The notes below the pieces were generated by a model, which worked only from the letters and a program-made list of their open reading frames with translations, was not told the origin of the DNA and did not search any database. The translations under genes and the position numbers were made by a program. From the NCBI GenBank assembly GCA_965224245.1, contig CBDCYW010000004.1:1-14683 (forward strand): a DNA stretch of 14,683 nt. Direction: 5' to 3'. Below, in pieces: positions 1 through 14,683 of this stretch (position 1 is the first letter of the stretch; every line of letters begins with the position of its first letter). The stretch is from Candidatus Eiseniibacteriota bacterium. Lineage in GTDB: Bacteria; Eisenbacteria; RBG-16-71-46; CAZAMP01.

Positions 1-2115
1 GATCAGCATTTGAAGCTCCGCGACCTTGACCGGATGGCTCTCAAACCGCTCCCACCACGGCACCAGGAGCGACTCCCATCGCTGCCGCTCGACGTTCGCA
101 CGCGTGTACAGGCGCTCGCGGTTGGCCATGAACCCGCTGACGCCCGCGACGTCGAGGATGCCGCTCATCGTTTTGGACCACCGCTCGAAGTTGCCGACGG
201 TGATGCTGCCCGCCGGCCGTCCTGCATTGATCCAGCCCCGGACGATCGTCAACGCGGCTTGGAGGAGCATGGGACGGTTGCGCACGGTCCATCCGCCAAG
301 ATCGGCGTGACGGAAGTCGTCTCGGTCGCTGGGACGCTCCATCTGCGCGTCGAGCACGATCGGCACGCATCGGCGCGCCATCTCCGAGGACATCACGGGG
401 TTGTTGCCCGTCGCGACCCACACGCTCCGCACGGGCCAGGACCCGGTCTCCGAGAGCGCCAGGATACGATCGCGCCACACACGGGCCGTGAGCGCCGAGG
501 ATAGCGCGTGGCTATCGAGGTAACGCGTGTTGTCGATGACGATGAACGGCAGGCCTTCGCGTATCGCCGCCGTGATGCGCTTGCGGATCTCCTCCTCGTT
601 CCGGGAGTCGGAAAGCGTCCCCGGAGGCTCCCCGGACATGGCCGACGCGATGACCTCCATCAGGAGCGTCGCACCGGTACCGGCGGCCGGCTTCTCGATC
701 AAGTGCAGTGGTGTGTTACCGGCGATCGCGTCGCGCACCAGCGGCAGGAGCACGAGCGCGAGACAGTTGGCTCGGCTGGCCTCGTCGACGAACGGGAACT
801 CCCCGAGCCACTCCCCAAGGAGCGTCTCGACCGCCACGCGGATCTCCCCGGGCGACGGAGTCTCCGGGACGCGGAGGCCCTCGATCTCCGCCCGCAAGAG
901 GACGTATACCTCGGTCTCGGCATTCCACCCGGACGTGACGACGATCTTGCCCGAGGCCGTCACGATCGGGCCGGTACTGACGCGCGCGAGCGATGGCAAC
1001 GGGATCGAGGTCGACGCCAGGACGGTCTTCGCGAACTCCAGCGGCGGGTCTGCGGCCTTGAGGTCACCGTTCTTTGTCGGTCGCACACACCTGACGGCTT
1101 GCGAGAGATGGAGCCGCATCGCGTGGGGCGAGATCGGCCTCGGGCGTCCCGCATCCCGGTCGACCTCGACGACGGTGTCGCCGAAACGAAACAGTCTCGG
1201 GGGTGCGTTCGCGGCGGCGATGGCAGCCCATGCCTCCTCACTCCGTAGATGAAGCTCGCCGTCGTTCAGCACGATCTCCGGGCGTACGGGGCCGGCGGTC
1301 CCGAGCGGTGCCGCAGGCGGGTAGCGCGTGATCGAGTGGGCAATCCGATCCACCTCAGACGAGTCGAGCGGGGGGCGGCAGCGTTCCGCGTTCTCCTCCC
1401 TGAGCGCGGCGGCGATCGCGGACCCGCCCATGCCGCGTCGGCGCATCGTGCCGGCCAGGCTTGTGAGCGAGTCGTTCCGTGAGCCCGCGAGAATGACGTC
1501 GTCCGCCGCTGCGATCCGTGGTTTCGGACGGCACTGGAGGGCTTGGAGCCAGGGACCCGGAAGCTCAGCGAGCGGGATCTCGCCTGGATGCGAGGACAGC
1601 TCCCATTCGTAACGCCGGCCGCTCACGTGCTCCGAGGGCGGGACGACGATGAAGCCGCCATCGCCCCTCACGTCGACGCCGGGATACCCGTCGCCGAATG
1701 CGTGCGCGCGTGATGACACGTGGCCGCCGGGGTGTTTGAACAGGAGATGCCACCCGCCGCCGCCGGTCTGCTGCTCGACGGTGTCCGGCAGCGGACCGAA
1801 CCGACGCTCCAGTTCTGCGAGCGACTCCTCACCATCGTGACCCGGGTCCACGTCGATCACCACGAGACCAGAGCGCGCTCCCGTGACGACTCCCACGCCG
1901 GCGTCAGGCGAGTGTTGCCACCAGCTCGTGATGACGGCCGGGTCGGTGGTCGCGTGTTCGACCCAGCCAGAGAGGCGCGGGTGTTTGCCGGGCGAGTCGC
2001 AGTCGTCGTCGGAGCACGTGCACCGCCCAGATCGGATGGGATGGATCGGGATCACGGGCCAGCCGAGCCCGGCGTATCGAAGCGCCCAAGACGCCGCATC
2101 GCGGTTAACGAGCAT
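1..2115 (-). CDS. Bifunctional DNA primase/polymerase (Prim-Pol, AEP superfamily) fused to PriCT-1 and a C-terminal AAA+/SF3-like helicase domain; 3'-partial, >=705 aa
   Basis: Manual translation from ATG 2115 is open to position 1. N-terminus MLVNRDAASWALRYAGLGWPVIPIH, Zn-like CTCSDDDCDSPGKHP, catalytic VIDVD (DVD 1846-1854), TGGGGWHLLF and GVDVRGDGGFIVVPPS. PriCT-1-like GSRNDSLTSLAGTMRRRG...CRPPLDSSEV. ATPase motifs EKPAAGTGAT (667-696), FIVIDN (529-546), WVATGNN (400-420) and MARR. Start overlaps the upstream HTH gene by 11 nt. Confidence 0.93.
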   Translation of the reverse strand, partial: MLVNRDAASWALRYAGLGWPVIPIHPIRSGRCTCSDDDCDSPGKHPRLSGWVEHATTDPAVITSWWQHSPDAGVGVVTGARSGLVVIDVDPGHDGEESLAELERRFGPLPDTVEQQTGGGGWHLLFKHPGGHVSSRAHAFGDGYPGVDVRGDGGFIVVPPSEHVSGRRYEWELSSHPGEIPLAELPGPWLQALQCRPKPRIAAADDVILAGSRNDSLTSLAGTMRRRGMGGSAIAAALREENAERCRPPLDSSEVDRIAHSITRYPPAAPLGTAGPVRPEIVLNDGELHLRSEEAWAAIAAANAPPRLFRFGDTVVEVDRDAGRPRPISPHAMRLHLSQAVRCVRPTKNGDLKAADPPLEFAKTVLASTSIPLPSLARVSTGPIVTASGKIVVTSGWNAETEVYVLLRAEIEGLRVPETPSPGEIRVAVETLLGEWLGEFPFVDEASRANCLALVLLPLVRDAIAGNTPLHLIEKPAAGTGATLLMEVIASAMSGEPPGTLSDSRNEEEIRKRITAAIREGLPFIVIDNTRYLDSHALSSALTARVWRDRILALSETGSWPVRSVWVATGNNPVMSSEMARRCVPIVLDAQMERPSDRDDFRHADLGGWTVRNRPMLLQAALTIVRGWINAGRPAGSITVGNFERWSKTMSGILDVAGVSGFMANRERLYTRANVERQRWESLLVPWWERFESHPVKVAELQMLI

Positions 2116-2320
2116 GTCCGCCACCGCCTTTCCGGCTTCGAGTCCGGCGGAGTCGCTTGAGCGCTGCTCGATATCGCTTCTCGAAGTCGGGTGGTGCGGT
2201 CTTGCGACCGATCTCGACCATCGAGACGAATTGCGGCGTCACACCCAGCGCGGCGGCGATCTCGTACTGGAGAACACCGGCCCGGAGGCGCTCGACCTTG
2301 AGTTCGAGTCCGAATGCCAT
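2105..2320 (-). CDS. XRE/Cro-family helix-turn-helix protein (71 aa)
   Basis: MAFGLELKVERLRAGVLQYEIAAALGVTPQFVSMVEIGRK fits the HTH_3 pattern. GGAGG RBS lies 6 nt before ATG 2320, favouring this start over the track's 2380. Confidence 0.85.
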   Translation of the reverse strand: MAFGLELKVERLRAGVLQYEIAAALGVTPQFVSMVEIGRKTAPPDFEKRYRAALKRLRRTRSRKGGGGHAR

Positions 2321-2322
2321 TG

Positions 2323-2400
2323 CAACCCTCCGACGTCTCGTCGCCACAGGACCGCGCGGATCGCGATCGCCGGGTGACAATTGATCGTCGGAGGTGATTG
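2323..2400 (-). promoter_or_regulatory. Long 5'-leader hairpin that sequesters the Shine-Dalgarno of the HTH-primase operon
   Basis: On the minus strand, CCUCCGACG pairs with CGUCGGAGG (the RBS), UUGUCAC with GUGGCGA, and GAUCGCG with CGCGGUC around an AUCCG loop. Several G-U pairs form only on the minus strand. Confidence 0.6.
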
Positions 2401-2427
2401 TGTCGGGCTAACGTGTTGTGGTTCAAA

Positions 2428-2464
2428 TGTTTAGATATTGCCGACGCGGCGGAATAGATAAACA
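2428..2464. promoter_or_regulatory. Imperfect inverted repeat, candidate operator or hairpin upstream of the HTH gene
   Basis: TGTTTA-ga-TATT-GCCG-acg-CGGC-gg-AATA-ga-TAAACA in an AT-richer intergenic stretch. GATAAAC recurs at 2457 and 2472. Confidence 0.45.
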
Positions 2465-2495
2465 CTTCGACGATAAACGCCAAGTGGCTGGGCGG

Positions 2496-3359
2496 CTAGA
2501 GGCGGACCCACATCGAGCGAAGCCACTCGATCTCCGAGGCGACGTCGCTTTCTCTAACAAGAGCGTCGAGTTTCAGTGCGTCTTCTTGCGTGCAGGGATA
2601 GACAGCGACGCCAAGCGCCGCGAGAAGGCGGTTGCCGGTCGCCGGTCTCATTAGCCGGTAACGCAGTTGTGGCATCGCCTTCGGGCCGAAGTCGTGGATG
2701 TCTTGCGGATTAGTCACGCCTGCCTTCTCAAGAAGCGTGCAGGCGATCGCGGCCGCACCTCCTTCCGGCCTCGATCGCTTGGGCACTGTTCGACACAGGT
2801 GGGAGTACACTGCCGCTCCAACTAGCTGCACGGCACACTGGCGGGTCGTACACAACGAAATGTCCCATGTCAGTGTTTCTGGCTGCGCGCCGTCTGCAAG
2901 TGCGTCGCTCATCGTCGGGATCACGGAGTATCGTGTGCCTGAGGGACGCCCTCGGCGATTGGGACTCTTCATCGGCCTGGTATTGTTCGCTTTCGCGATG
3001 ATCTTGCCACAGAGGCGATGCAGTTGGACGAGTAGGACCTCCCGGCGCAGCTTCTCGAAGGTCTCGCTCTTCAGTTCGATGCTGTGAATATCGACGATGA
3101 CCTTCTCCATTCGCTTGAGAAGCTCATTCGCGTCCGCTTGGATATCGTCGGCTACGTACAGTTCCTTGAAGAGCCGAAGCCACATAGCCAACTTGAACGC
3201 GTGCTTCGCGGACCACGTAGGTCCGATGACCTCGGCAATCCAACCCACGTCGTTGGTGGCGATTTCGGGGAGTAGTGTCTTGAGCCTGCGCGGGAGCACT
3301 CGCTCCTCCACGAACTCGAAGAGCCGCTCAAGGGCGTCTCGGTCGGACGATCTGCTCAT
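2496..3359 (-). CDS. Hypothetical protein (287 aa), no recognisable family
   Basis: Longest ORF filling the gap between the HTH gene and the methyltransferase. Protein-like, largely helical composition with an RRGRPS motif. No SD before the ATG. Confidence 0.7.
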   Translation of the reverse strand: MSRSSDRDALERLFEFVEERVLPRRLKTLLPEIATNDVGWIAEVIGPTWSAKHAFKLAMWLRLFKELYVADDIQADANELLKRMEKVIVDIHSIELKSETFEKLRREVLLVQLHRLCGKIIAKANNTRPMKSPNRRGRPSGTRYSVIPTMSDALADGAQPETLTWDISLCTTRQCAVQLVGAAVYSHLCRTVPKRSRPEGGAAAIACTLLEKAGVTNPQDIHDFGPKAMPQLRYRLMRPATGNRLLAALGVAVYPCTQEDALKLDALVRESDVASEIEWLRSMWVRL

Positions 3360-3365
3360 GTTAGG

Positions 3366-3415
3366 AAACTAAACCAACCAGGCTGTTGATCAACCAAAAG
3401 GTTGATCCCTAGCGT
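3366..3415. promoter_or_regulatory. Candidate divergent sigma70-type promoters sharing the palindrome GTTGATCAAC
   Basis: Minus strand: TTGATC(3393-3388)-16 nt-TAGTTT(3371-3366)-6 nt-ATG. Plus strand: TTGATC(3386-3391)-18 nt-TAGCGT(3410-3415). Also the dyad GATCAACC-aaaa-GGTTGATC (3388-3407). Confidence 0.45.
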
Positions 3416-4551: not shown

Positions 4552-5215
4552 CATCGTTCCCGAGACGCGCGTCGTCCCCATCGCCGACCTCGTCCCGCAC
4601 CCGATGAACGCCAACGCGATGCCGCCCGATCTCTTCGAAAAGCTGAGAGGCCATCTGCGACGCAACGGACGGTACCCCGCCGTGATCGTGCGTCCGCATC
4701 CGGAGGAACCGACGAAGTTCGAGGTCATCGACGGGCATCACCGTGCGCGTGCCCTGGAGAGCCTGGGGCACGAGACGGTGCGCGTGGATATCTGGAACGT
4801 CGACGACACCGAGACGCGCGTGCTCCTGGCGACGTTGAACAGACTCGAAGGCGACGACATCCCCGTGCGACGCGCCGAGCTGTTGCACTCGCTCCTGGGG
4901 TCCATGTCGAGCGCCGACCTGGCCAGCCTCGTCCCCGAGAGCGAAGCGGAGATCCGAGACCTGCACGCGCTCCTCGAGTTCCCCGCCGGTGACATCGCCG
5001 CCCAGCTCGCCGACGAGGCCGCCGAGACCGAGAAGACCCTGCCGGTCGTCCTGACCTACGTGGTCCATCCCGAGCACGCCACGCTCATCGCCGACGCGGT
5101 CGAGCGCGCCTCGGACGGCATCACCGGGCGCGATCGGAAGGCGCGTGGCCTTCTGAACCTGGCCCGCCACTACCTGGAAGGAGCCCCCGATGCTGACGCG
5201 CCGACAGAAGCGTGA
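4535..5215 (+). CDS. ParB/Srx N-terminal domain protein (226 aa)
   Basis: VPIADLVPHPMNAN...G.YPAVIVRP...FEVIDGHHR...LATLNRLEG. GAGGAGG at 4521-4527 supports ATG 4535 rather than the track's 4091. Overlaps the MTase end by 17 nt. Confidence 0.88.
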   Translation: MPSSPSIVPETRVVPIADLVPHPMNANAMPPDLFEKLRGHLRRNGRYPAVIVRPHPEEPTKFEVIDGHHRARALESLGHETVRVDIWNVDDTETRVLLATLNRLEGDDIPVRRAELLHSLLGSMSSADLASLVPESEAEIRDLHALLEFPAGDIAAQLADEAAETEKTLPVVLTYVVHPEHATLIADAVERASDGITGRDRKARGLLNLARHYLEGAPDADAPTEA

Positions 5216-9782: not shown

Positions 9783-11225
9783 GTGCGAAACGTACTTCCG
9801 GTCGTCATGTCGTTGTTTGTCGGCGGATCGGTACTGGCTGCGGAATACACCGTGCCTGGTGATTTCCCGGACCTGGGCTCCGCGCTGGCTGTCACCGTTC
9901 CTGGCGACGTGGTGACGATCCTGCCCGGCAACTACAGTGGCCCGGGATGGCACTCGCTGTCGGCATCGCACCCTGGGGTCCTCTACATCAGGACCGAGGG
10001 TGGAGCCGAGGTGACGTCGATCGATCTCGATGGCAACGTGTTCTTCAACTCCAACACGCACCTGGATCTGACGGGACTGCGCCTGTACGGGGCCGGGCCG
10101 CTAGTCATTCATGCGCAGCAGTTCGAACTTGACATCGCAGAGTGCCACTTCCACGACAACACCGGCCGTATCGCAATCGGCGGAGACGATCATATGTTCG
10201 TGGCCAACACGCTCTGTGAACGAAACGGCGGCGGCTTTCGCGAGACCCGTGGGGTCGTGACAATTCACGACTCGGAGTTCGTCGACTGTACGGGTCCCCT
10301 GGTTGAGATCAACGAGTGGGGCAATCTGTTCATCGAGAGGAGTCGGTTCGTCGGGACGAACGGCGTGGCCGTTCTGGGAGAATCGTCGACCTATTCCGAG
10401 GTTCACGATACGGAGTTCGTTGGCGGGAACGACAGCGCCATTCATCTCTTCGACACCTACAAGCCGACCGCCTGGAGTGACCTTCTTCTCGTGGGCTGTT
10501 CGTTCGTCGACAACGTCACGCCGACGTCCGGAGCGGTCGCTCGCATGCCCGACAACAACAGCCATCTCAACGCGGAGGAGTGCGTCTTCGTCGGCAACGA
10601 GGCCGCAATCTCGGGCGGGTGCTTTCTCGTAGCGTTCGATCAGTCCGGATCGGTGCGCGCCGCGGACTGTACGTTTCACGACAACTACGCTCCCGACGGC
10701 GCGGTGCTCGCCGTCGTGGAGTCCTCGGCCACCATGCCCGACCCGGTAACGTTCCTCCGATGCCTGGTCACCGGAAACCGCGGCGACGTTCCGGTGACGG
10801 CGCCCACGCCCGTGGCAATTGATCCCAGCTGCACGGACGTCTGGGGCAACCCCGGTGGGGACTGGGCCGGCTTGCTCGCGGGCTGGGACCAGTGCGAGAT
10901 CGGGAACTTCTCGCTTGACCCCGTCTACTGCGATGTCTCCGCGCGTGACCTCACGCGGGAGTCCTCATCGCCGTGCCTTCCGGGGCAGCATCCGTGCACC
11001 GCCGACTGCAGCACGATCGGGCGCTGGGGCGTGGGCTGCATCGCGGTCGGCGTGCCGCCGCCACCGATCGGCGAGCCAGCGACCATTCACGTCGTGCGGA
11101 ATCCTTCCGCCGTGCCCGTCATGTTCCAGGTCAACATCCCCGGGGAGAGGGCAGCTTCCCTCACCATCTTCGATCCGGCGGGGCGACGCGTCCACGCCAA
11201 CGGAGTTGCCAATGCTCGGACGTAG
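9783..11225 (+). CDS. Secreted right-handed parallel beta-helix protein with a truncated FlgD-Ig-like C-terminal domain (480 aa)
   Basis: GAGGAGG RBS, signal peptide, TVPGDFP...GDVVTILPGNY start, repeated (C/S)xFxxN rungs, and Cys-rich CTDVWGN...GNFSLDPVYC...SSPCLP...IGRWGVGC. Ends with NPS...LTIFDPAGRRV and an early stop. Confidence 0.88.
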   Translation: MRNVLPVVMSLFVGGSVLAAEYTVPGDFPDLGSALAVTVPGDVVTILPGNYSGPGWHSLSASHPGVLYIRTEGGAEVTSIDLDGNVFFNSNTHLDLTGLRLYGAGPLVIHAQQFELDIAECHFHDNTGRIAIGGDDHMFVANTLCERNGGGFRETRGVVTIHDSEFVDCTGPLVEINEWGNLFIERSRFVGTNGVAVLGESSTYSEVHDTEFVGGNDSAIHLFDTYKPTAWSDLLLVGCSFVDNVTPTSGAVARMPDNNSHLNAEECVFVGNEAAISGGCFLVAFDQSGSVRAADCTFHDNYAPDGAVLAVVESSATMPDPVTFLRCLVTGNRGDVPVTAPTPVAIDPSCTDVWGNPGGDWAGLLAGWDQCEIGNFSLDPVYCDVSARDLTRESSSPCLPGQHPCTADCSTIGRWGVGCIAVGVPPPPIGEPATIHVVRNPSAVPVMFQVNIPGERAASLTIFDPAGRRVHANGVANART

Positions 11226-14200
11226 CGCCGCAACCGTCCTCTTCTCGATGGTCTTCTCCGCGGGGTCCACCGGTGCCGTCCCCTTCGTGACGGAGACGAT
11301 CGACGGGTCGGCGAACGACGCCGGTGTCTGGACCGGGATCGAGACGGACTCACGGGCGATCCCGCACATTGGATACGTGGACCGAACCGCGAAGATCGCC
11401 TGGCACGTGACCTGGACACCGGGTGGCTGGTCGTTCACCTCCCTGGAAGATCACGTGATCTTCTCGCCCGAGGATCTCGTAGATCTCCGTGAAGTACGCG
11501 TCGACGTGGACAGCTCGGATCGGGTGCATCTCGCCCTCGCCGCGACCTCGACCGGGGCCACTCATGTCTACCACGTCTACGACATCGGCGATCCCGACGG
11601 TGTGGATGTGGTGAACGCACGTCAGTTCGGCCACTCGGACCGGATTGCCATGCGACTCGACGTGTCCGACGTCGCCCACATGGTGTGGCAGCAGCACGCG
11701 GGATATCAGTCGCGTGGGTTCTACTACAGCACCAACGAGTCGGGGGACTGGATTGAGGAGAGGTTTGCAGACACTCAGCATCCCGTGTACCACGCCGCAC
11801 TCGGCGCCGGCGGCGGGGTCGTGGCTTTCGCGTTCAATCGATCGGCGCACCTGGACTCGTTGCGTTACTTCGAGCGGAGTGGACCCGTCTGGGGCCCCGA
11901 GGAGACCATCACCACGACCCGCGCCTACGGGCTGGCGATGTCCCTCGACACGGACGGCGAGCCGCACGTCGTGTACGTCGACGTGGTCGGTCGTCTCTGG
12001 TACGCCACGAAGCCTCTGGGCGGTTCGTGGCAGAACCAGATCCTCTACGCGGGCAGCGCCACGCGGGCACCCGCCATCACGGCCGTGGGTGGGGACGACG
12101 TTCACGTCAGCTACCAGGCGCTCGGCGATTCCTCGCTCCGATATCACGCCCGGGTCGGCGGGGCGTGGTCGAGCCAGATCGTCGATTCCACCGGAGATGT
12201 CGGGAACTACTCGTCGATCGCGGTCGATGTAATCGGCCGCATTCACATCGCGTATCACGACTCCACCAACGCAGACCTCAAGTACGCCATTGCCGCCGAC
12301 TGTAATGGAAACGGCATCCCGGACTCCGACGACATCGCCGGTAGTGCCGATCTCGACTGCAACGACAACCGTATCCTGGACGCCTGCGAGATCGCGGCGG
12401 GACTCGCGCTGGACCTCAACGAAAACGGTATCCCCGACGAGTGCGATCCCGGCAGCGGTGGTAGCGGCATCTCCTCGGCGGTGTGGACGACGACCGGGGG
12501 GCAGGCGGGTGCCGCGCTGGGATCGGCGGTCGCGTCGGCCGGTGACGTGAATGGTGATGGCTACTCCGACGTCGTCGTCTCCGCCCCCGATCATGACGGC
12601 GCCTTCGCGGACGTCGGCCGCGTGGCGGTCTATCATGGCTCGGTGACCGGCTTGGAGCTCGAGCCGGCGTGGGTGAAGGAGGGATCCGCCGCAGGCGTCC
12701 GATTTGGACACTCCGTCGGCACAGCCGGCGATGTGAACGGCGATGGCTACTCGGACCTGATCGTGGGAACACCATCCTCCGGATCGTACGTCTACCTGGG
12801 TTCCTCCTCGGGCCTCGAGGACACACCGGCCTGGACCGGCCCCAGCGGCTGGTCCGTGGCCACGGCCGGCGACGTCAACGACGACGGCTACTCCGATGTC
12901 GTGGTGGGTGACCCCACGGACTCCGGCGATGCCGGGATGGCCGCCGTGTTCCACGGATCCGTCGCGGGTCTCTCCGAGTCCGCCGACCGGGTCATCGGGC
13001 TCGGGGACGAGTTCATCCAGGTCGGCGACGAGTTCGGGTTCTGCGTCGCTCCTGCCGGAGACGTGAACGCAGACGGCTACGCCGACGTGATCATTGGCTC
13101 TCCCGGCTCCTCCAACCCGAATTCCTCGGGCAGGGCTTACGTCTTCTGTGGAGATGCCGGCGGAATCACGAGCAGCTGCTGGTCCTCCGCGTGGGGCGGC
13201 ACCGACCTGGGCCTGGCGCGATACTCGCAGTCGGTGGCCGGCGTGGGGGACGTCAACGGAGATGGGTTCTCCGACGTCATCGTGGGCGCCCCGCTGTGGG
13301 GAAACGGCCGGGTGTTCCTTCACCTGGGCCGATCGACCGGCGTGGGGCCGGATGAGTGGGCGTACGAGTCGAGCGAACCCTCTGCCAACCTCGGTTTCTC
13401 CGTGAGCCCCGCGGGCGACGTCAACGGAGATGGCCATGCCGACTTCTTCGTCGGCGTGCCCGGCGTGCCGATCGACGGAGGTGAGGCGCTGCTGTTCCTC
13501 GGATCGGAAGACGGCGCATCGAGCGCGGCGAGCTGGTCGGAGACCGGCGGCCAGTCGGGGGCGGCGTTCGGGACCGCGGTTGCCACGGCAGGAGACGTGA
13601 ACGGCGACGGCTACTCGGACCTGATCGCGGGCGCGCCCGGATTCGATGATCCGGCAGGGGACGCCGGAGGCGCGTTCCTGTACCTCGGGGCCCCGGGGGT
13701 GCCCAGTGACGTTCCGGCGCACACGTTCTGGATTGGCCAGGCGGGGGCCGGGATCGGCATGACCCCGCGGCGTGCGGGCGACGTCGATGGCGACGGCTTC
13801 GGAGACGTGATCATCGGCGTTCATGCACTCGACTACGACGCTGGCGCGAACGAGGGCGGTGCTTACTATCTGCGCGGACGACCCGATGGCCTGTGGTACC
13901 AGTCCTGGGTGGACTTCGGCGGCCAGGAAGACGCCTACTTCGGCTTCGACGTCGCCGGCGCAGGAGACGTCAATGGCGACGGCTACGCCGATCTCATCGT
14001 CGGCGCCTTCGGGAAGGATGATGACCAGGTCGATGAGGGGGCTGCGTACGTCTACCACGGCTCACCGGACGGACCTTCGGATACGCCCGACTGGAGCGCG
14101 TGGGGGAACGAAGTCGGCGCGGCTTTCGGCGTGTCGGTCGACGGTGCGGGCGACGTCAACGGCGACGGGTTCGACGACGTCATCGTCGGCGCATACCTCC

Positions 14201-14683
14201 ACGACGGTGGCTCCGTGGACGAAGGACGCGCCTACGTCTATCACGGCTCCAGTGCGGGGCTGTCTCCGACGCCGGCCTGGACGATCGACAGCAACGAGAC
14301 GAATGCCCGTCTGGGACTCTCGGTGGCGAGTGCGGGCGATGTCAACGCCGACGGCTACGCTGACGTCATAGTCGGTGTGTACTACCACAGTGGCGGTCAG
14401 ACCCAGGAAGGCTCCGCCCGGGTCTATCTCGGATCCTCCACGGGACTCGCGACGACACCGGTGTGGACGGCCGAGAGTGATCAGACCACGGCGTGGTTCG
14501 GTCGATCGGTGGCCGGTGCCGGCGACGTGAACGGCGACGGCTACGCCGACGTCATCGTCGGGTGTGCAAAGTTCAACAACGGGAACACCGACGAGGGGCG
14601 CGCCTACGTCTACCACGGGACGCCGGTCGGGCTCGAGGCGACGGCCGCGTGGACCTTCGAGAGCGATCAGACGCTGGCCTTCC
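11212..14683 (+). CDS. Large secreted protein: N-terminal beta-propeller, 3 DCNxNG-type Ca-binding repeats and >=12 FG-GAP (integrin-alpha-like) repeats; 3'-partial, >=1157 aa
   Basis: Manual translation from ATG 11212 (GGAG 6 nt upstream) has no stop to the window end. Signal-peptide-like MLGRSAATVLFSMVFSAGSTGA. Blades such as MSLDTDGEPHVVY and SIAVDVIGRIHIAYHD. DCNGNGIPD, DCNDNRILD and DLNENGIPD at 12298-12447. Twelve GDV(N/D)xDGxxD motifs from 12541. Confidence 0.93.
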   Translation, partial: MLGRSAATVLFSMVFSAGSTGAVPFVTETIDGSANDAGVWTGIETDSRAIPHIGYVDRTAKIAWHVTWTPGGWSFTSLEDHVIFSPEDLVDLREVRVDVDSSDRVHLALAATSTGATHVYHVYDIGDPDGVDVVNARQFGHSDRIAMRLDVSDVAHMVWQQHAGYQSRGFYYSTNESGDWIEERFADTQHPVYHAALGAGGGVVAFAFNRSAHLDSLRYFERSGPVWGPEETITTTRAYGLAMSLDTDGEPHVVYVDVVGRLWYATKPLGGSWQNQILYAGSATRAPAITAVGGDDVHVSYQALGDSSLRYHARVGGAWSSQIVDSTGDVGNYSSIAVDVIGRIHIAYHDSTNADLKYAIAADCNGNGIPDSDDIAGSADLDCNDNRILDACEIAAGLALDLNENGIPDECDPGSGGSGISSAVWTTTGGQAGAALGSAVASAGDVNGDGYSDVVVSAPDHDGAFADVGRVAVYHGSVTGLELEPAWVKEGSAAGVRFGHSVGTAGDVNGDGYSDLIVGTPSSGSYVYLGSSSGLEDTPAWTGPSGWSVATAGDVNDDGYSDVVVGDPTDSGDAGMAAVFHGSVAGLSESADRVIGLGDEFIQVGDEFGFCVAPAGDVNADGYADVIIGSPGSSNPNSSGRAYVFCGDAGGITSSCWSSAWGGTDLGLARYSQSVAGVGDVNGDGFSDVIVGAPLWGNGRVFLHLGRSTGVGPDEWAYESSEPSANLGFSVSPAGDVNGDGHADFFVGVPGVPIDGGEALLFLGSEDGASSAASWSETGGQSGAAFGTAVATAGDVNGDGYSDLIAGAPGFDDPAGDAGGAFLYLGAPGVPSDVPAHTFWIGQAGAGIGMTPRRAGDVDGDGFGDVIIGVHALDYDAGANEGGAYYLRGRPDGLWYQSWVDFGGQEDAYFGFDVAGAGDVNGDGYADLIVGAFGKDDDQVDEGAAYVYHGSPDGPSDTPDWSAWGNEVGAAFGVSVDGAGDVNGDGFDDVIVGAYLHDGGSVDEGRAYVYHGSSAGLSPTPAWTIDSNETNARLGLSVASAGDVNADGYADVIVGVYYHSGGQTQEGSARVYLGSSTGLATTPVWTAESDQTTAWFGRSVAGAGDVNGDGYADVIVGCAKFNNGNTDEGRAYVYHGTPVGLEATAAWTFESDQTLAF

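Follow-up and report, generated by a model that had tools for sequence, protein, structure and literature searches.

Does the hairpin in the leader of a small regulator/primase operon hide the ribosome-binding site (RBS) of the mRNA, or is it a site used at the level of the DNA, a mark between two genes, or simply a by-product of GC-rich sequence? This question is raised by the minus strand of contig C5, which in its full length of 14,683 bp (65.6% GC) is the window analyzed here. In a first-pass annotation, a rod-like structure had been described in front of a helix-turn-helix (HTH) gene, in which an upstream arm identical to the anti-Shine-Dalgarno (anti-SD) segment of 16S rRNA would bury the Shine-Dalgarno (SD) sequence and gate the synthesis of the HTH protein and of the primase encoded next to it. 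As judged from folding models, the hairpin is probably best filed as an SD-sequestering leader, which is a familiar phage way of limiting translation.

Genomic Setting of the Leader

The assembly, with a total of 6.9 Mb, is composed of a main contig of 6.45 Mb at 69% GC and 26 small contigs at 57-69% GC. For 25 of the 26 small contigs (C2-C27), the GC content is 57-66% and lies below the 69% of the 6.45-Mb contig, the exception being C20 with 69.0%. Primases are encoded by several of the small contigs, and C23 begins with 120 nt that recur without change at C11:46418-46537. The small contigs may be mobile elements or foreign DNA that was binned in, and the host assignment of the window is therefore uncertain. 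On its plus strand, the window carries genes for a D12 methyltransferase, a ParB-like protein, and the small and large terminase, among others; because of these terminase, ParB-like, and methyltransferase genes, C5 is regarded as phage-like. A large open frame at 10819-14682 (plus strand; >1288 amino acids) containing 11 FG-GAP repeats runs off the contig and is preceded by a beta-helix protein at 9783-11225; both proteins are possibly tail-fibre or adhesin-like. With regard to a tRNA-associated att site, no tRNA gene was found in the window.

The HTH gene occupies positions 2105..2320 of the minus strand, with its ATG at 2320 and the stop codon TAA at 2107..2105, and encodes a 71-amino acid protein of the Xre type (HTH_31, E 7.9e-06; HTH_3, E 4.8e-05). 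It is followed at 1..2124 (minus strand) by the gene of a primase with Prim-Pol and PriCT_1 domains and a helicase-like C-terminal part, which is cut by the contig end. The primase starts either at GTG 2124 or at ATG 2115, so that the HTH gene is overlapped by 20 or 11 nt, respectively. Since the HTH stop overlaps the primase start in the window as well as in both paralogous loci of the assembly (on C15 and C23), translational coupling of the two genes is plausible. Upstream of the HTH gene, a co-directional gene at 2496..3359 (minus strand), whose frame and strand are backed by codon-position GC, encodes a 287-amino acid protein for which neither a Pfam or PHROG match nor viral relatives were found; this gene is devoid of an SD. 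The hairpin is located in the 175-nt spacer between these two co-directional genes, about 100 nt downstream of the end of the 287-amino acid frame. GGAGG-type SDs are also present on other C5 genes, which speaks for a role of the hairpin in SD sequestration.

Fold of the Leader RNA

The hairpin described in the first-pass annotation is real in sequence and position. Minus-strand RNA from 2400 to 2318 folds into a single rod (2327..2394; leader positions 7-74) of 28 bp, namely 19 G-C, 6 A-U, and 3 G-U pairs, with small bulges and internal loops and the 5-nt apical loop AUCCG. Its minimum free energy (MFE) is -42.2 kcal/mol, compared to a mean of -27.5 for shuffled sequences (z -4.79), and none of 200 shuffles folds as well. 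The earlier description of the leader as folded from end to end holds for the rod as such, but the first six and the last nine nucleotides of the leader lie outside the helix. An inverted-repeat search and the listing of pairs agree on a perfect 9-bp outer helix, formed, as had been proposed, by the anti-SD arm CCUCCGACG on the 5′ side (2386..2394, minus strand) and by CGUCGGAGG on the 3′ side (2327..2335, minus strand). The latter contains the GGAGG (2331..2327), which is situated 6 nt before the ATG (2320..2318). The SD is consequently part of an RNA helix, as in leaders of the T4 gene e type, here at the base of the 28-bp rod.

The resemblance of the 5′ arm to 16S rRNA had been given particular weight. 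The 16S rRNA of the assembly ends in ...GGAUCACCUCCUUUCU, and the 9-nt stretch AUCACCUCC is truly shared with the leader; the canonical tail itself counts in favor of SD sequestration. The interpretation as a meaningful anti-SD mimic, on the other hand, had to be abandoned: only CCUCC pairs with the SD, while the extra AUCA is unpaired and reads ACUC in the paralogous leader. The extended 16S "mimic" is regarded as a coincidence.

The first-pass annotation had further taken about five G-U pairs, said to work on the coding strand only, as pointing to a structure of the RNA. The MFE structure contains three G-U pairs (2379/2339, 2371/2348, and 2366/2352), and one A.C mismatch would turn into a G-U pair on the other strand; for both reasons, the strand argument is weak. 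The asymmetry at the RNA level is present but modest, with the plus strand still reaching -35.3 kcal/mol (z -2.06; 7 of 200 shuffles as good); the bias of -42.2 (z -4.79) versus -35.3 (z -2.06) nonetheless counts for a structure that sequesters the SD.

That the plus strand also beats its shuffles would be expected if the hairpin were a palindrome acting in the DNA, be it as an operator of the HTH protein (autoregulation), as an origin or primase-loading site, or as a recombination hot spot, with the overlap with the RBS being incidental. A perfect 10-bp palindrome, GAUCGCGAUC, at the apex and the perfect 9-bp inverted-repeat arms are in line with such a role. Folded as single-stranded DNA, however, the region is unremarkable (z -1.85; 10 of 200 shuffles as good), and a continuous complementarity of 68 nt with three coding-strand G-U pairs is unlike the shape of an Xre operator, which measures 14-20 bp. 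Nor are the three GATC sites of the hairpin distinctive among the 148 in the window. A link of a Dam/GATC cluster to the D12 methyltransferase was dismissed, given that GATC is frequent throughout (about 47 sites expected from base frequencies) and that several similar clusters exist.

Overlapping perfect palindromes, GTTGATCAAC and GATCAACC-TTTT-GGTTGATC, are found at 3384-3407 in the divergent spacer of the 287-amino acid protein and methyltransferase genes. They look like operators and may be bound by the HTH protein. An operator common to this site and to the hairpin was rejected, because 2318-2400 contains no GGTTGATC-like site with up to one mismatch; 17 sites of this kind are present in the window as against 13 expected. 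The absence of any motif shared by the hairpin and these divergent-promoter palindromes also speaks against an operator function of the former.

Rarity of the Hairpin

According to raw energy, the hairpin ranks 56th among 7302 sliding 83-nt windows of C5, and it is the second-best locus after GC correction. Energies of -42.2 kcal/mol or lower were obtained for 4 of 3000 windows of matched GC content drawn at random from the chromosome and for another 4 of 3000 from the small contigs, which is about 1 in 750. Occlusion of the SD was viewed against a background of 1965 genome-wide GGAGG-N5-8-ATG/GTG sites preceding open reading frames of at least 70 codons. For these, the probability that the SD is unpaired has a median of 0.32 and is below 0.01 in 5.5% and below 0.003 in 2.7% of the cases; with a value of 0.0033, the hairpin site belongs to the lowest 3% or so of comparable GGAGG sites, which counts for SD sequestration. 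Overall, the hairpin is unusual at the levels of roughly 0.1% (energy) and 3% (occlusion).

Structures of this kind are rare, yet one or two of them can turn up in 14.7 kb of GC-rich DNA when both strands are considered. Our own estimate, which assumes about 1000 effectively independent windows and two strands, is one or two such hairpins per contig, and the hairpin could be a chance product of GC-rich sequence that is under no selection for a function. The energy and occlusion frequencies given above are compatible with this explanation, and so is the fact that a stronger rod occurs within coding sequence of C5. It is opposed by the observation that a top-0.13% hairpin falls on the SD of the leading gene of the replication pair, and this inside an intergenic region of 175 nt. 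The stronger rod is located at 4717-4799 (plus strand) within the ParB-like coding region (-47.7 kcal/mol; z -5.71; matched by none of 200 shuffles), where it may represent either a palindrome of the parS kind or an RNA structure; being the best C5 locus after GC correction, it counts against a special role of the leader in SD sequestration. Another segment, at 2117-2203 (plus strand), antisense to the 3′ end of the HTH gene and the primase start, is also among the top GC-corrected windows, with -42.1 to -42.5 kcal/mol.

A comparison with Rfam, as had been suggested in the first-pass annotation, assigned the leader to no family or riboswitch, with no match at the gathering threshold over the whole window and, between 1900 and 3500 at E up to 10, just two chance-level matches elsewhere. 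The missing family match is again compatible with a chance hairpin. A repeat element of the REP or MITE kind was excluded, as the 200-nt region is single-copy in the 6.9-Mb assembly, with only GC-rich chance matches of 14-22 nt.

Relatives and Paralogous Loci

Relatives of the primase were found at 7 loci on genome contigs, 2 on viral contigs, and 23 on metagenome contigs, all with at most 57% amino acid identity in the best segment. No tblastn match to the HTH protein of the window (E up to 1) was obtained in these 32 loci, and for this reason their leaders cannot be aligned with that of C5; small open reading frames that resemble MerR or excisionase HTH proteins, a label assigned by eye, often take its place. 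The HTH protein is likewise absent from the 205 other genomes of the phylum (E up to 1e-5), and a search of 5.8 billion proteins returned, at near lengths, only the protein itself. Viral relatives of the HTH protein comprise two loci recovered by a single protein and one by alignment; the one examined encodes a 198-amino acid protein and is not followed by a primase. The apical 22-nt pattern of the hairpin has no match in viral contigs, and positions 1-3400 of the window have none in phage GenBank records.

Within the assembly, small Xre-type HTH genes overlapping a primase start are found on three elements, C5, C15, and C23. On C15 (~1981-3120; L038), the HTH protein is 49-50% identical to that of the window and the stop codon of its gene overlaps the start of a Prim-Pol gene; the leader is unstructured (z +0.51). 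At the locus of a distant HTH relative (L039), only an unrelated hairpin is present. Both observations count against SD sequestration by a shared leader. On C23 (22634-22851; L037), where the HTH protein is 68-69% identical, the overlap is with the start of a DnaG/Toprim primase. The alignment of the two HTH proteins begins at M1, and upstream of the ATG the nucleotide similarity continues with non-triplet gaps, from which it follows that the leaders of C23 and C5 are non-coding and homologous. The 3′ arm of C23 keeps CGCGGUC, GACGA(U)GAGAC, and UCGGAGG, and the contig ends in the apical loop. The leader has been inherited together with the HTH gene in spite of the unrelated primase, which speaks for its role at the SD. 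As far as the sequences tell, a leader plus HTH cassette precedes two unrelated primase types in this assembly, which is the local twist of the system.

Two contigs from public sequencing runs extend this comparison. The one from run X3 (189 nt) combines the C23-type 3′ arm with a 5′ half that matches 2350-2394 in 40 of 45 positions, followed by 12 letters that differ from C5; the match over the 5′ half of the hairpin counts for SD sequestration. The other, from run X1 (151 nt; depth 3.7), agrees with C5 letter for letter over 2264-2387, beyond which come 27 unrelated letters that have no counterpart anywhere in the assembly. This contig carries a leader without the anti-SD arm, which counts against SD sequestration, and its breakpoint at 2387/2388 is either a mosaic junction in the 5′ arm or an assembly artefact.

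When the 5′ arm of C5 is hypothetically joined to the 3′ arm of C23, a rod of -34.2 kcal/mol is again predicted in which the SD is paired, in favor of SD sequestration. When the 3′ arm was mutated at random to the same divergence in 1000 simulations, 58 of the resulting arms equaled the real C23 arm in folding, so that retention of the fold is a trend rather than a proof. The structural conservation in homologues on which the first-pass annotation had placed emphasis is partial: it is suggested for the C23-type leader, the single close relative, by the letters of the 3′ arm and the 40/45 match of the X3 contig, and it is not seen for C15 and L039.

These comparisons bear on two of the explanations introduced above. 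A chance origin is compatible with the lack of significance of the conservation test; it accords less well with the retention of the arms in the paralog (79% identity in the coding region versus 40/45 in the 5′ half of the hairpin) and with the survival of the rod despite the indels in the paralog's 3′ arm. All in all, an origin by chance is unlikely, though it has to be reckoned with. For a palindrome acting in the DNA, it can be argued that leader and HTH gene are found as a unit before two primases that are unrelated to each other; that C5 and C23 have in common the HTH segment TPQFVSMVE, presumably the recognition helix; and that homology to two related sequences breaks at the edge of the hairpin, at 2387/2388 and ~2394/2395. 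Weighed against the unremarkable DNA fold and the atypical operator shape, a DNA-level function is nevertheless held to be quite improbable.

Accessibility of the Shine-Dalgarno Sequence

The claim that the leader gates translation has two parts. Burial of the SD stands, in terms of folding, in every context examined: the probability of an unpaired SD is 0.002-0.003 whether the leader is folded within 238 nt or 501 nt of sequence or together with the HTH coding region up to its full length, and this persistence of the rod counts for SD sequestration. The other part, an effect on HTH and primase synthesis, is a prediction from these models. A thermometer, which had been offered as one possibility, does not agree with the calculations, according to which the mean probability of an unpaired GGAGG rises from 0.002 at 37°C to 0.004 at 45°C, 0.015 at 65°C, and 0.079 at 85°C, meaning that the SD remains paired in silico to 65°C or more. 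For the suggested antisense target, no support was obtained.

The prediction that transcripts starting inside the 5′ arm would escape repression was borne out in silico, where the SD of such transcripts would be exposed 10- to 200-fold more. With 5′ ends at leader positions 8-10, the probability of an unpaired SD increases to 0.17-0.51; with a start at position 12, it is 0.03-0.20, depending on the 3′ context. This series of 5′ ends speaks for SD sequestration. The HTH coding region contains a second CCUCC, at 2284..2288 (minus strand). In RNAs that lack the upstream arm, it takes over the pairing with the SD, in a weaker hairpin (-17.5 kcal/mol); that the SD is paired even in 5′-shortened transcripts counts against the proposed sequestering leader.

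Upstream, the hairpin is bordered by a more AT-rich spacer (2395..2495, minus strand), which contains an imperfect palindrome and a weak sigma-70-like candidate. The palindrome, itself AT-rich, lies at 2416-2476 (minus strand), 20 nt past the stop codon of the 287-amino acid frame and just ahead of the hairpin; as an RNA structure it was discarded, its z of -1.42 not being significant. A consensus scan of 2050-2750, based on a consensus that may not be that of the host lineage, revealed no sigma-70-like site with at least 9 of 12 matches, which counts against the proposed sequestering leader. The candidate, TTGAAC-18-CACAAT, was read by eye and has 8 of 12 matches to the sigma-70 consensus, which may not apply to the lineage; its -10 hexamer ends at 2397. 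Its +1 would fall at about 2390-2388 and so lie within the 5′ arm, adjacent to the site at which the X1 contig diverges.

The position of the hairpin about 100 nt past the stop codon of a co-directional gene, with a second, weaker hairpin before it, also allows for an assignment to the upstream transcript. The hairpin would then punctuate the mRNA of the 287-amino acid protein as a terminator or attenuator without a U-tract, as an RNase III site, or as a stabilizer of the 3′ end, and SD sequestration would be a by-product. An interrupted stem of 28 bp, corresponding to about two helical turns, has the size of an RNase III substrate, and may be cut by the enzyme, which is encoded on the main contig C1 (Ribonucleas_3_3, E 3.2e-38). 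Intercistronic sites of this type are used in phage early operons, as described in PMC5371410. Against this assignment, the stem is followed by GGGUUGCAAUGG and not by a U-run, as the definition of an intrinsic terminator demands, and a terminator scan lists as its sole, weak site 2483..2467, away from the hairpin. The lack of a U-tract terminator at the hairpin, downstream of a co-directional gene, counts for SD sequestration. Moreover, the structure has been passed on along with the downstream HTH gene, and the upstream gene has no relatives with which it could be compared. Punctuation of the upstream transcript is, overall, of low probability.

Proposed Mechanism

Starting from what was observed, namely how the leader folds and how stable it is, where the SD lies, how the genes overlap, and that the leader is partly retained in one paralog, we infer the following course for transcription, ribosome access, and timing. 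The leader would act in cis, as a stem-loop in the mRNA of an HTH-primase operon on a phage-like element. In transcripts that contain both arms, including those reading through from the gene of the 287-amino acid protein, the GGAGG would be locked in the 28-bp rod. Binding of the 30S subunit, synthesis of the HTH protein, and synthesis of the overlapping and probably coupled primase would be held very low. Expression would require an mRNA without the 5′ arm, by analogy with the T4 genes e, soc, 49, and I-TevI. The likeliest source would be a transcript started just upstream of or inside the arm. With a start at about 2390-2388, where the weak TTGAAC-18-CACAAT candidate would place it, the inner rod would become a 5′-terminal hairpin and the SD would be only weakly paired. 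As an alternative, second route of activation, the rod may be cut by the RNase III of the host, as in adhE and lambda cIII; the presence of the enzyme on the chromosome counts for the SD-sequestering leader. That the leader silences read-through transcripts in this manner, after the kind of T4 gene e or of the RNase III-activated adhE and lambda cIII, is suggested by the folding models and is put forward tentatively, as a good possibility rather than an expectation.

A more far-reaching version would regard leader hairpin and Xre-type HTH gene as a portable cassette that is placed before unrelated primases and licenses the initiation of replication by way of translation. The cassette would overlap Prim-Pol on C5 and C15 and DnaG/Toprim on C23, and only the transcripts of one promoter, or those processed by RNase III, would open the SD and, by coupling, give access to the primase. 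This version is considered very doubtful.

Comparison with Known Systems

In the T4 genes e (lysozyme), soc, 49, and I-TevI, the RBS is hidden in long early transcripts and becomes accessible when transcription starts from a promoter within the structure, as outlined in PMC3014915. The leader of C5 resembles this class in that the SD belongs to the 3′ strand of a helix in the leader, long transcripts can come from a co-directional gene further upstream, and a -10-like hexamer immediately precedes the 5′ strand, with 5′-shortened RNAs being predicted to expose the SD. It differs by a much longer and more stable hairpin (28 bp; -42 kcal/mol) and by the nature of the gene, which is part of a regulator/primase pair instead of serving lysis or homing. 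The two are unrelated in sequence, and the C5 leader has no late-type promoter.

Translation that is activated by RNase III is represented by E. coli adhE, lambda cIII, and the lambda N leader, as described in PMC5371410. Occlusion of the RBS by intramolecular pairing, a stem of RNase III size, the phage-like setting, and the presence of the host enzyme are reminiscent of adhE and lambda cIII. Unlike in these, a cut in the rod could leave the SD trapped in the 9-bp outer helix, and neither a sequence nor an Rfam relation to adhE, lambda cIII, or lambda N exists.

With RNA thermometers such as ROSE and fourU, the leader has in common the pairing of the SD with a run of pyrimidines further upstream. 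Thermometers are short, imperfect helices that melt at 30-45°C, whereas the C5 rod is predicted to hold the SD beyond this range and has no match to a thermometer in Rfam. Stabilizing hairpins at the very 5′ end of an mRNA are known from leaders of the ompA type; a likeness to these would arise only with the putative start near 2390-2388, which would place the inner rod at the 5′ terminus.

Conclusion

The mechanism considered for C5 is a textbook one, of which the leader is a well-formed, putative instance, and no long-standing question is opened by it. If functional, it would add an architecture in which an HTH gene overlaps the primase gene, realized with two unrelated primase types. It would also mean that, in a poorly sampled lineage of high GC content, a mobile element or phage times its replication genes by occlusion of the RBS and not by a repressor alone.
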